DNA of 64,000 nt from Sulfurospirillaceae bacterium. Lineage in GTDB: Bacteria; Campylobacterota; Campylobacteria; Campylobacterales; Sulfurospirillaceae. The notes below the pieces were generated by a model. The model saw only the letters and a program-made list of their open reading frames with translations. It had not been told where the DNA came from and made no database searches. The stretch lies in NCBI GenBank assembly GCA_033723415.1, contig JAWVXD010000004.1:96001-160000 (forward strand), written 5' to 3'. Positions 20,027 to 50,775 of the stretch are shown here, one piece after another. Within the stretch, counting starts at the first letter, position 1. Every line of letters begins with the position of its first letter. Position numbers and translations under genes: made by a program.

Positions 20027-20617
20027 TTAAAGGGTTATCGTTCCCTCTGAATTGAGTAACATCTCTACCGTACCGTACGCATTACCGATTTTTCCTACTT
20101 TTAACTTATCAACAACATCAAAATACTCTAAACAAACCCCGCATGAATAAATCTCAACACCTTTATCTTCTAAGGCTCTCAACGTCTGTATAACTTCTGT
20201 TTTAGAACAAGCAGTCGTGAGTTTTACGGCCTCATTTACGCATATTATTTTATTTGGCAATTTTGGCAATTCCAATATGGATTTTAAAAATCCCACTATC
20301 AGTTTTTCACCTAGTTCTCCAGTACCGATTTTGTCTGATTTTAGAAAAACGCTCTTATCTAAAAATTTTTGCGAGTTTTCATTTTCTACGACTTTACAAG
20401 CATAACCTTTAACGATAGTTATGATAGTACTTCCATCGCTTTGATCTTCCATCTTAGGATCGTAACCTGCATTTTTTACGAATCTTGTCACATTCTCTTT
20501 AGAAGAAACCGAATTTACTTTAACTTCCAAAATAGAATCGGTAGCCAACTCTTCCAAGGCTTTTTTAGTTTTGAGAACCGGTTCCGGACAAGCCAGATTA
20601 CAGCAATCTATCTTCAT
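20027..20617 (-). CDS. yedF: Selenium metabolism protein YedF (TusA-like plus DsrE-like domains)
   Basis: MKIDCCNLACPEPVLKTKKAL; GELGEKLIVGFL; YSCGVCLEYF, VGKIGNAY; SD GGGAGA before ATG 20617; immediately upstream of selD. Confidence 0.88.
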   Translation of the reverse strand: MKIDCCNLACPEPVLKTKKALEELATDSILEVKVNSVSSKENVTRFVKNAGYDPKMEDQSDGSTIITIVKGYACKVVENENSQKFLDKSVFLKSDKIGTGELGEKLIVGFLKSILELPKLPNKIICVNEAVKLTTACSKTEVIQTLRALEDKGVEIYSCGVCLEYFDVVDKLKVGKIGNAYGTVEMLLNSEGTITL

Positions 20618-20695
20618 TCTAATATCTCCCTTTTCCTGCACTTGTTCAGAAAAATTTCTTTCATGAAAGCTTACGCTTTGAGCAGAATATTTCAT
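20618..20695 (-). repeat. Structured mini-ORF/RBS cassette, copy A (in frame with yedF)
   Basis: Encodes MKYSAQSVSFHERNFSEQVQEKGDIR; first 44 nt are 36/44 identical to 49466-49509; two hairpins followed by an SD. Confidence 0.75.
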
Positions 20696-20798
20696 CCTGG
20701 CAGTCTTTAAATTTTTATTTTTATTTTTCAAATGACAGATAAATTTTGTTAGTCAAAATATTGTCTACCTAAACCTTAGGTCTGTTTTTTTGTATGAT

Positions 20799-20981
20799 TT
20801 ATTTTAAAATACCGTCTACCCATTTTTTAGCATCTTCTATCGTTTCAAATCTTTTACTTTTGGCAACTTGAGTTACTCCTTCGTAAAATCTAACTCTGAT
20901 GCCGTCTTGAACTTCGTCTATCTTGATTCTACTAATCCTGTCTTTATTTAGATAAACTCTGTCGTTTAATTTTATAAACAT
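20799..20981 (-). CDS. Small conserved hypothetical protein (60 aa)
   Basis: MFIKLNDRVYLNKDRISRIKIDEVQDGIRVRFYEG; SD AAGGAA; candidate -10 TATAAT at 21084-21089. Confidence 0.75.
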   Translation of the reverse strand: MFIKLNDRVYLNKDRISRIKIDEVQDGIRVRFYEGVTQVAKSKRFETIEDAKKWVDGILK

Positions 20982-49026: not shown

Positions 49027-49428
49027 TTACTCCAATATCTCTTTAATTTTTGGCAGTAATACTGCTTCGATCTCGCTATACAGCTTCTCAAATGCTTCGT
49101 ACCCTTCACCATCAGGATCTACAAATCCAACATGTATCTTTTTCACTGCTCTTGGAAACATCGGACACGTCTCTTTGGCATTATCGCAAACCGTAATCAC
49201 GAGGTCGAAGTCTTCATCAAACACTTCATCTAAAACTTTCGAGCGGTATTCATCTCTCCAAATACCGTGCTCTTCTAATACTTTTTTCGCATATTGGTTC
49301 ACTTTTCCGCTTGCCTTTACGCCGCTACTTTTTGCTTCAACACCATCTAAAAATGCGTTTATTTGGGCTTCTGCAATGATACTTCTGCAACTATTTCCGG
49401 TACATAGAACCAATACTTTTTTTATCAT
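49027..49428 (-). CDS. arsC: Arsenate reductase (LMW-PTP/thioredoxin type)
   Basis: LCTGNSCRSIIAE, ITVCDNAKETCP, FVDP. Confidence 0.92.
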   Translation of the reverse strand: MIKKVLVLCTGNSCRSIIAEAQINAFLDGVEAKSSGVKASGKVNQYAKKVLEEHGIWRDEYRSKVLDEVFDEDFDLVITVCDNAKETCPMFPRAVKKIHVGFVDPDGEGYEAFEKLYSEIEAVLLPKIKEILE

Positions 49429-49509
49429 TTAACTATCTCCTTTATCTTGGAACTCGTCCCAAGTTAAATTCCTCTCACTAAAGCTAACGCTTCGCGTAGA
49501 ATATTTCAT
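49429..49509 (-). repeat. Structured mini-ORF/RBS cassette, copy B (26-aa ORF between arsB and arsC)
   Basis: SD AAAGGAGA then ATG; MKYSTRSVSFSERNLTWDEFQDKGDS-stop; the TAA abuts the arsC ATG; homologous to 20618-20695. Confidence 0.75.
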
Positions 49510-49521
49510 TAATTGTCTCCT

Positions 49522-50775
49522 TTAAACTAAGCTCAATAGTACGATCAGTAGCACCGGAGGTGTGACCAAAAGACCAAATTTACTATACTGCCAAAATCCT
49601 ATCTTTATCCCTTTTTTTGCCAAGACATGAAGCCAGAGCAGTGTTGCCAAAGATCCAAACGGTGTCATCTTCGGACCTAGATTGCAGCCTATGATATTAG
49701 CATAAGCAAGGGCATGATTTTGTACGTGCTGCAAAGCTATATCCATTATCATAACCGTTGGCATATTGTTCATGATGGCACTTAGAAACGCAGATATAAA
49801 GCCTGTTCCTACGATAGCTACAATGTCACCTTTTTTACTAAGTTCATGCAAAATGATTGCCAAATGATCCGTCAAACCTGCATTTTTCAAACCGTAGACT
49901 ACGATATAAAGACCTATGCTAAACCATACAACCTGCCAAGGGGCATTTTTTATAGTAAGCCATGCTTTTGCGCTTTTTGTATAACTGGCTATTGCCAGGA
50001 AGACCAAGCCGCCTCCTAGCGCAAAAAGACTGATCGGAAGATGAAAATGATCCCCTATAAAATACCCGATCAACAATAAGCTCAGGAAGAACCAGCTAAA
50101 TTTAAACAATGTTTTATTTTTTAGTACGTCATCTTCATTTTTCAACAAACTTATATCTACGCTCTTTGGTATATCTTTGCGTAAGATAATCCAAAGTACC
50201 GCAATAGAAACAATCGTGCTGATAAAATATGGGAAGATCATATGTTGTAGGTACTCTAAAAATCCTATATGAAAGTAATTTGCCGTTACGATATTTGTCA
50301 AATTTGAAAATACAAAAGGCAGGGATGCACTGTCACTTATAAATCCACCCGCCAAGATAAAAGCTAAAATCGTCTTTGCATCTAACTTGAGGATTCTCAT
50401 CTTTGCCAACAAAATAGGCGTCAAGATCAATGCCGCACCATCATTTGCAAACAAAGCAGATACAAATGAACCAAGAGCCAGAGAATAAACAAACATAAGA
50501 TGTCCGTTGCCCTTTGACAGTTTTGCCATCTTTATAGCACACCATTCAAAAAAACCTATCTCATCAAGGACCATCGACAGTATGATAATCCCGACAAAAG
50601 CCAATGTGGCATCCCAAACTATTCCTGTGACTATCGCTATATCATTAAAACTTACAACGCCCAAAACCAAAGCGACTATTGCCCCAATGATGGCAGTAGT
50701 TCCTATCTGCAAGCCACGAGGTTGCCATATCACAAAAATAAGTGTTATTAAAAACAGACTACTTGCCAGTATCAT
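49522..50775 (-). CDS. arsB: Arsenite efflux pump ArsB
   Basis: VIWQPRGL, VWDATLAF, LFANDGAALILTPI, SNLTNIV, MNNMPTV, GCNLGPKMTPFGSLATLLWLHVL. Confidence 0.95.
   Translation of the reverse strand: MILASSLFLITLIFVIWQPRGLQIGTTAIIGAIVALVLGVVSFNDIAIVTGIVWDATLAFVGIIILSMVLDEIGFFEWCAIKMAKLSKGNGHLMFVYSLALGSFVSALFANDGAALILTPILLAKMRILKLDAKTILAFILAGGFISDSASLPFVFSNLTNIVTANYFHIGFLEYLQHMIFPYFISTIVSIAVLWIILRKDIPKSVDISLLKNEDDVLKNKTLFKFSWFFLSLLLIGYFIGDHFHLPISLFALGGGLVFLAIASYTKSAKAWLTIKNAPWQVVWFSIGLYIVVYGLKNAGLTDHLAIILHELSKKGDIVAIVGTGFISAFLSAIMNNMPTVMIMDIALQHVQNHALAYANIIGCNLGPKMTPFGSLATLLWLHVLAKKGIKIGFWQYSKFGLLVTPPVLLIVLLSLV

Follow-up and report, generated by a model that had tools for sequence, protein, structure and literature searches.

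Among the described classes of short bacterial repeats, the one that by analogy matches the sequence treated here is the mycobacterial MIRU, although the sequence is not itself a MIRU. According to the available part of PMC3184786, MIRU are units of 40–100 bp, present in 40–50 copies, with tetranucleotide repeats at filled sites and with ORFs that overlap the adjacent genes; the part of PMC12548453 at hand adds that MIRU inserts at start codons and thereby couples its ORF to the host gene. The former source, to the same extent, describes Neisseria REP2 and Borrelia IR-A/IR-B as lying directly upstream of genes and as carrying a ribosome binding site (RBS), an ATG, two stem-loops and a promoter. 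Finally, short repeats tagged with GTAG or CGTC occur in Sulfurovum sp. NBC37-1, as stated in excerpts of PMC3733652.

The window considered here, that is, the whole stretch of 64,000 nt that was analysed from a Sulfurospirillaceae bacterium, holds two copies of a repeat that is probably a non-autonomous mobile element of about 80 nt, belonging to free-living Campylobacterales and working like MIRU. One copy precedes yedF and the other separates arsB from arsC, with the following features, including the Shine-Dalgarno sequences (SDs) and a short internal reading frame (mini-ORF).

20618..20695, minus strand: repeat copy 5' of yedF, a decayed member of the family, whose 26-codon mini-ORF is fused in frame to YedF
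20670..20685, minus strand: hairpin 1 of the yedF copy, in the form backed by family covariation, with one mismatch and one G-U pair
20655..20671, minus strand: linker of the yedF copy, conserved in the family and here diverged from the consensus
20631..20654, minus strand: hairpin 2 of the yedF copy
20625..20632, minus strand: repeat-supplied SD of yedF, 7 nt 5' of the yedF ATG
20027..20617, minus strand: yedF (TIGR03527), with its real start at the downstream ATG at 20617
49429..49509, minus strand: repeat copy between arsB and arsC, with a 26-codon mini-ORF whose TAA abuts the arsC ATG
49484..49499, minus strand: hairpin 1 of the arsC copy (CT-ACGC / GAA / GCGT-T-AG), backed by family covariation
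49469..49485, minus strand: linker of the arsC copy, of the consensus type and conserved
49441..49468, minus strand: hairpin 2 of the arsC copy
49436..49442, minus strand: new SD for arsC, supplied by the repeat and predicted to be mostly unpaired
49510..49522, minus strand: probable original SD and spacer of arsC, now serving the mini-ORF, from comparison with the empty site of the relative G013
49027..49428, minus strand: arsC-like arsenate reductase, below the NCBIfam cut-off
49522..50775, minus strand: arsB

The first-pass annotation had recognised these two minus-strand copies as homologous, and both their coordinates and the identity of 36 of the first 44 nt hold; in a blastn comparison against the 2.43-Mb genome, the yedF copy matches the arsC copy with an E value of 1.6e-6. 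The yedF copy reaches E 1.3e-7 in nhmmer and 63.5 bits with the covariance model (CM), the arsC copy E 5.5e-16 and 91.7 bits. The mini-ORF peptides and SDs read as they were first written, the five codon differences called synonymous agree on inspection by eye, and hairpin 2 is confirmed. Hairpin 1 as then drawn holds only in part: it is present in the minimum free energy structure of the arsC copy (AAAGC/GCTTT plus CGC/GTG), whereas family covariation does not back it, its 12 pairs showing 4 two-sided changes versus 122 for the 6-bp hairpin of the family, as counted in the 73 canonical copies out of 127. When folded singly against shuffled sequences, the yedF copy is not better (z -0.26) and the arsC copy has a z of -2.3. 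Because most orthologues of the family align from residue 1 of the protein that begins at 20617, this downstream ATG is the real start of yedF; the 26 codons fused to YedF are not conserved. At the other locus, positions 49510..49522 (minus strand) form an imperfect direct repeat of about 19 nt with the 3' end of the element, and the empty arsB-arsC site of G013, the nearest relative, shows the identical SD with a spacer like this one immediately 5' of arsC, so that this segment is probably the original arsC SD. The mini-ORF would then start at the old arsC start, with the element providing the new one. As a separate observation, a 16-nt hairpin lies at 20767–20782 (minus strand), between a 60-aa ORF (20799–20981) and yedF, and compensatory changes preserve it in 28 of 30 yedF loci (L099–L128); it is a better candidate than the repeat for a cis-element of yedF-selD.

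With iterated nhmmer searches, 34 copies are detected in this genome at E<=1e-3 and, when the threshold is relaxed to E<=0.1, 40 copies; a reversed-genome control stays empty even at E<=1. These 40 copies, all of them intergenic, 77–83 nt long and AT-rich (GC 0.23–0.46, about 34%), occupy 35 sites, five of which are tandem pairs; 39 are oriented in sense to the next gene, while one is antisense between tRNA-Cys and tRNA-Ser, and most lie within operons. Since decayed copies are met below the HMM threshold (G000:C3:143107, C3:298956 and the junctions matching L209 and L275), the true count exceeds 40. The downstream hosts scanned (n=34) are unrelated genes without a common pathway, many of them highly expressed, and include ArgB, ArgG, ArgF, DnaK, ClpX, SecY, IF-1 (infA), RpoZ, RbfA, L11, L7/L12, EF-Tu, AtpA, NuoC, ParB, RecR, DnaE and LysS as well as UreC, PrpB, NadC, TruD, FeoA and PhnJ.

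This list decides between the two readings that had been offered for the pair. According to one of them, the repeat would be a selenium- or arsenic-responsive leader, acting as RNA or peptide, a view suggested solely by the two hosts in the window, yedF and arsC. Metalloid regulation is refuted because these are the only Se or As genes among the hosts scanned (YedF and ArsC, 2/34); in addition, the orthologous yedF and arsB-arsC leaders are mostly empty, the repeat being undetected by HMM or by eye at 27 of 29 yedF orthologues in relatives and found at none of the g3 arsC leaders listed, and all three reading frames are used. Such a leader is thus scarcely conceivable, and nothing special is implied about the regulation of Se or As. 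According to the other, a mobile repeat lands on translation starts and stays harmless by means of its own SD and start codon, and this is what the many copies in front of unrelated genes favour. The attached label, REP/MITE-like, stands as far as mobility is concerned and not in the sense of a classic REP or MITE, given the lack of a flanked RAYT, of a tag and of a fixed-length duplication.

The anatomy of the family was derived from 127 anchored copies (158 distinct CM matches minus 24 unanchored and 7 mis-anchored ones), with a CM built from 27 copies of this genome. The parts follow one another in a fixed order: hairpin 1 comes first and is joined to hairpin 2 (11–13 bp) by a conserved linker of about 17 nt, after which come the motif A-G(G/A)-AGA, 6–9 nt and usually an ATG. 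Hairpin 1 has 6 bp in the family, with CT and 4 variable nt before a 3-nt loop (mostly AAA) and 4 nt, a bulge and AG after it; hairpin loops measure 2–5 nt. The stems vary in nearly every copy, with 106 distinct hairpin-2 strings in 112 copies, and are nevertheless paired in 90.9% of cells, with a covariation of 0.69 versus 0.16 in shuffled and at most 0.15 in slid controls, in an alignment that was itself fitted to the structure. A second set, gathered across the whole collection with a pattern constrained in hairpin 2 at its two outer pairs only and possibly sharing genomes with the first set, gives 757 Watson-Crick, 97 G-U, 6 A-C and 43 other combinations at pairs 3–9 of hairpin 2 (95% paired). 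Because G-U is far more frequent than A-C, the folding strand is the sense strand, whether as RNA or as single-stranded DNA, which these counts do not tell apart. A linker G/T also covaries with the GG of the SD: the two GGA motifs (linker/SD) combine as G/G 93, T/A 28, G/A 8 and T/G 0 in the second set and as G/G 91, T/A 25, G/A 2 and T/G 6 in the first, figures that are compatible with structure, with a second GGA site and with subfamily descent alike.

Other structural candidates were tried and rejected. A third middle arm shows, like the first version of hairpin 1, almost no two-sided change; GNRA-like letters in the linker (80/127) have no supporting closing stem; and the resemblance to attC breaks down by eye on the missing RYYYAAC end and on the housekeeping hosts. 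Pairing between the ends of the element is seen in the rnpB copies, where it is a requirement of P12, and is absent in the arsC fold and weak in the yedF fold. The yedF copy, the one copy scanned for a promoter consensus, contains no match to it. Rfam, which might have held a known family, returned no curated one, with 0 matches at gathering in the window and, in 8 loci searched at E<=5, no match that falls on the element.

Comparison between relatives reveals the same junctions with and without the element. For instance, arsB-arsC and map-infA are filled here and empty in G013, whereas G013 has copies at rpe, rplJ (as a tandem array), flgE and rpmA, sites that are empty here. The arsB-arsC site is likewise empty at four other junctions and holds a variant copy in G005; the yedF site holds a decayed remnant without ATG in G013 and tandem variant copies in G005. 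The comparison of G069, G003 and G019 (the best 30 loci of 49, of 69 and of 34, respectively) with this genome covered 52 junctions that are filled there; 9 of them are filled here too and the other 43 were flagged as empty, of which 4 or more retain a decayed copy by eye. At five loci (L198, L204, L225, L256 and L267), an overlapping stop/start here (ATGA/TAATG) corresponds to ATG(A)-element-ATG there. Direct repeats at filled sites vary from 4 to 20 nt and many copies have none; perfect flanking repeats of at least 10 nt, the longest being 20 nt, accompany 6 of 84 solo copies versus 1.8 expected, and head-to-tail tandem expansion is seen as well. G003 appears to hold a recent subfamily, as shown by a linker subtype in 17/29 of its copies versus 0/24 here, by copies at different sites that are up to 97% identical and by 24/29 nearest neighbours lying in the same genome; in G013, G019 and G069, nearest neighbours are not genome-specific. 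To be weighed against a MIRU-like mobile repeat are the identity of at most 87% among the copies of the present genome, which are old or diverged, and the empty sites, which are not enriched for tight junctions (gaps of <=10 nt in 19/43 versus a background of 55%, on crude ORF calls). Besides these sites, the rplO-secY junction (L039–L051), whose genes overlap or abut in other genera, carries different hairpin-plus-SD inserts in each genome of this genus, including single-hairpin forms.

Between this genome and G013, four-fold sites have reached saturation (73/208 identical, in three genes), and at shared sites the linker is nonetheless 82–100% identical (82–88% at prpB and rplL, with a nearly identical DUF2603 copy), while the stems change with compensation and stay paired. 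A linker and a pairing conserved despite saturated four-fold sites mean more constraint than pure junk needs, a point against a mere mobile repeat; resident copies are either under selection or refreshed from one another. The same constraint, together with stems that differ almost everywhere and remain paired, the covariation and the sense-strand wobbles described above, the two GGA motifs lost together and the many highly expressed hosts, would suit a domesticated cis-acting RNA module, in which linker and hairpins form a binding or processing site that is redeployed by gene conversion. Examples would be a 5' stem-loop protecting processed mRNA segments, or a pair of GGA motifs, GGA being the motif of CsrA-type proteins, offered to such a protein. 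However, subfamily descent could explain the joint loss of GGA, the sites are mostly genome-specific, copy number differs between genera from 0–3 to 17–68, the hosts share no pathway, and copies are found within P12 of RNase P, ahead of 16S rRNA and in antisense orientation between tRNA genes, where they can have no part in regulating translation. A module of this kind is hence rather unlikely, while being the strongest of the competing explanations.

At translation starts, the element interacts with its host gene in two ways. The 5' ATG that opens the mini-ORF is present in 41 of 89 start-adjacent copies and missing from 48, so that coupling is not universal, which also counts against a strictly MIRU-like behaviour. 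The mini-ORF ends at or fuses to the host start in 31 of these 41 copies versus 14.0 expected for a random frame, and does so in 13/13 cases in which its ATG overlaps the upstream stop, across all three frames. Among 52 ATG-bearing copies, frame 0 is used in 31, frame 1 in 6 and frame 2 in 15. Since three frames are used and the position of the hand-over is kept, the peptide itself looks irrelevant. A functional or ribosome-stalling peptide (MKxSxxSxSFSERN...) could point to frame 0 as the commonest and the most often open, but would have to accommodate the use of the other two frames, the ATG-less copies, the G013 yedF remnant among them, and the frequent linker changes at second codon positions; it is very improbable. 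The SD behaves differently. A start lies 8–17 nt downstream in 78/90 copies with the GG form of the SD versus 5/37 otherwise (p 4e-15), and the second set agrees (69/93 versus 6/36, p 4e-9), both p-values being overstated because kin copies are not independent. An SD that is in use is retained (78/90), and an unused one disappears (32/37).

The element is also found in places where no protein is made. P12 of the RNase P RNA is filled by it in 5/27 parsed rnpB loci, always in the SD-less form; in the present genome, P12 is short. In two records the element lies just 5' of 16S rRNA, and the Gly-Leu-Cys-Ser tRNA operon has copies in all three spacers, six of them antisense and one sense, with the antisense ones keeping their wobbles on their own strand (6 G-U versus 1 A-C in 6 copies). 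This free orientation and the own-strand wobbles, few as the copies are, would argue for insertion at the DNA level that is followed by selection in protein operons. Two further observations were made on rnpB. A second rnpB gene in G003 (L248, G003:C1:2061-2497) has the repeat at a different position and a TnpB-like gene nearby, and other long P12 insertions occur in L171, L178 and L187, two of which share a hairpin-2 loop motif and were not scored as this repeat.

As for the enzyme that could move such an element, single-strand transposition deserves consideration. The repeat might be of the PATE/REP type, its hairpins being ends cut by an HUH transposase (IS200/IS605 or RAYT) and its strand bias being set by replication; the two hairpins with their short loops, the one-strand wobble bias, the presence of Y1_Tnp genes in 55/61 genomes of the family and the location of 33/40 copies on the G-rich strand (20-kb windows; 67% of ORFs, p 0.02) are in line with this. 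IS200/605 insertion is not known to make flanking direct repeats, however, and here such repeats exist. Moreover, Y1 genes are as common in the genus with 0–3 copies as in high-copy genera, among 31 Y1_Tnp loci the repeat never occurs on both sides (a single copy lies within about 1.5 kb of 3 of them), and the single Y1_Tnp gene of this genome has no copy nearby. The replication-strand bias is weak and was discarded, as it weakens when the windows are widened to 60 kb and as the opposite strand holds one of the tRNA-spacer copies. Movement by an HUH enzyme is accordingly judged improbable. In the search for other candidates, the non-homologous neighbours of copies include one integrase and one TnpB, each seen once (15/31 candidate ORFs scanned), and 46 distinct long-variant matches, about half of which are unrelated chance matches, contain no ORF-bearing parent, the long variants holding only inserts of 25–60 nt. 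That the mobilising gene was not found weighs against the MIRU-like reading, which is still the preferred one.

Several other elements were met along the way. Most genomes of the family have a RAYT-like Y1_Tnp gene of 258–290 aa bounded by its own unrelated inverted repeats of 24–49 nt (L294, L295, L298, L300, L301, L304, L307 and L308), and one such inverted-repeat end has replaced the 5' half of a repeat copy (L274). A second mini-element of about 25 nt, made of two tiny hairpins, inserts after AGCTT-like sites and sits in the linker or hairpin 2 of the repeat as well as alone elsewhere (L024:470-580 (minus strand), L263, L279, L444, L476, L455 and L470). An integron-integrase-like gene (L196:1618-2619, minus strand) lies directly upstream of a G069 repeat copy and was seen once. 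Finally, an attC-like hairpin, identified by eye, lies between a restriction-modification gene and the Y1_Tnp gene (L038:1205-1300, G000:C1), suggesting that the start of this contig holds an integron cassette array.

When considered across genomes, the distribution of the repeat is wide and uneven. The CM matches 49/60 other genomes of the family, with 17–68 copies per genome in this genus and 5–61 and 14–44 in two others (at most 70 candidates having been scored per genome), and 0–3 copies in a genus of 28 species. In a sample of the phylum it matches 10/151 genomes, with 0/53 and 1/60 in the two largest families. When all species genomes were scanned with a pattern, at least 123 stretches were obtained, and the 80 matches listed are almost all from Campylobacterales, namely Sulfurospirillum, Sulfurimonas, Sulfurovum, Hydrogenimonas or unclassified MAGs. 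PLSDB plasmids gave no match to the repeat, IMG/VR none to the pattern, and phage sequences three short chance matches only. Titles and the opening lines of abstracts, with few subscription papers among them, contain no description of this family, which is apparently an undescribed one of free-living Campylobacterales.

How this family relates to the known systems can now be specified. With MIRU, as far as the two papers were accessible, it shares unit size, tens of copies, intergenic placement in operon sense, insertion at start codons, filled and empty sites, a coupled internal ORF and tandem arrays, a likeness drawn from description. The tetranucleotide repeat reported for MIRU may have its counterpart in ATG(A) on both sides at the five loci mentioned, with repeats of up to 20 nt or none elsewhere. 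Unlike the G+C-rich mycobacterial elements, this family is AT-rich and lives in Campylobacterales, brings an SD of its own that is tuned to context, has a mini-ORF start in about half of its start-adjacent copies, is built from two separately covarying hairpins around a conserved linker, makes duplications of 4 to about 20 nt, and is also found in RNase P RNA, 16S leaders and tRNA spacers. Neisseria REP2 and Borrelia IR place an RBS, an ATG and two stem-loops before genes, a layout that recurs here; those elements carry a promoter in the excerpted description, whereas this repeat lies mostly inside operons. Like REP/REPIN sequences as described in the accessible text, it is short, hairpin-forming, dispersed and chromosomal, and unlike the REP/REPIN-RAYT system it shows no GTAG/CGTC tag at the ends of the consensus or of aligned copies, no flanked RAYT and a strict start-codon position; being set apart from the Sulfurovum families of PMC3733652 by description and not by consensus, it may overlap with them. 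From a MITE it differs in its variable duplications of 4–20 nt and in that no ORF-bearing parent was found. Dispersed repeats in the hypervariable P12 of RNase P RNA are also familiar from cyanobacterial STRR and Rickettsia RPE. Tolerance in P12 is alike in these cases; the present element otherwise donates an RBS and is SD-less in rnpB.

The MIRU-like reading can be spelled out as a sequence of steps. As filled and empty sites show, the element appears at start-codon regions and leaves ATG(A), or sometimes 10–20 nt of SD and spacer, on both sides, with head-to-tail expansion in addition. In the second step, for which the preferred proposal is copying, a folded single sense strand would be copied in via short homology between the SD-spacer-ATG end of the element and the translation start of the host, by an enzyme of the host or one acting in trans; such copying would explain sense orientation, variable repeat length and tandem arrays alike. 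Survival would next be filtered by translation, as the statistics on frames and SDs indicate: the old start of the host would become that of a throw-away mini-ORF ending at the new start, which could pass ribosomes on, and the SD of the element would drive the gene, to be lost if the next feature is a native SD or a non-coding RNA. In the last step, which comparison of shared sites documents, some resident copies keep linker and pairing while their stems turn over, and others, such as the yedF copy, decay. More speculatively, and with less likelihood than the RNA module discussed above, the repeat might be a self-spreading translation-start module without a dedicated transposase, which would target SD-ATG by homology of its 3' end and whose linker and GGA motifs would be read by a host RNA-binding or processing factor; each genome would in this way re-wire a different set of 20–70 housekeeping genes into one post-transcriptional regulon, which would sometimes also take in RNase P and rRNA leaders.

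Such repeats have consequences for annotation, because they create false N-terminal extensions (26 aa in the case of YedF here) and false small proteins, and their tandem arrays could be used for strain typing. The mechanism of MIRU-type mobility is left unsettled in the accessible parts of PMC3184786 and PMC12548453; with many filled and empty sites, a covariance model and relatives that have between 0 and 68 copies, this mechanism becomes testable by comparison. For the biology of the family, the repeat offers a case in which selection re-tunes one inserted SD to its context, and in which mRNA, RNase P, rRNA leaders and tRNA spacers all tolerate one and the same repeat.
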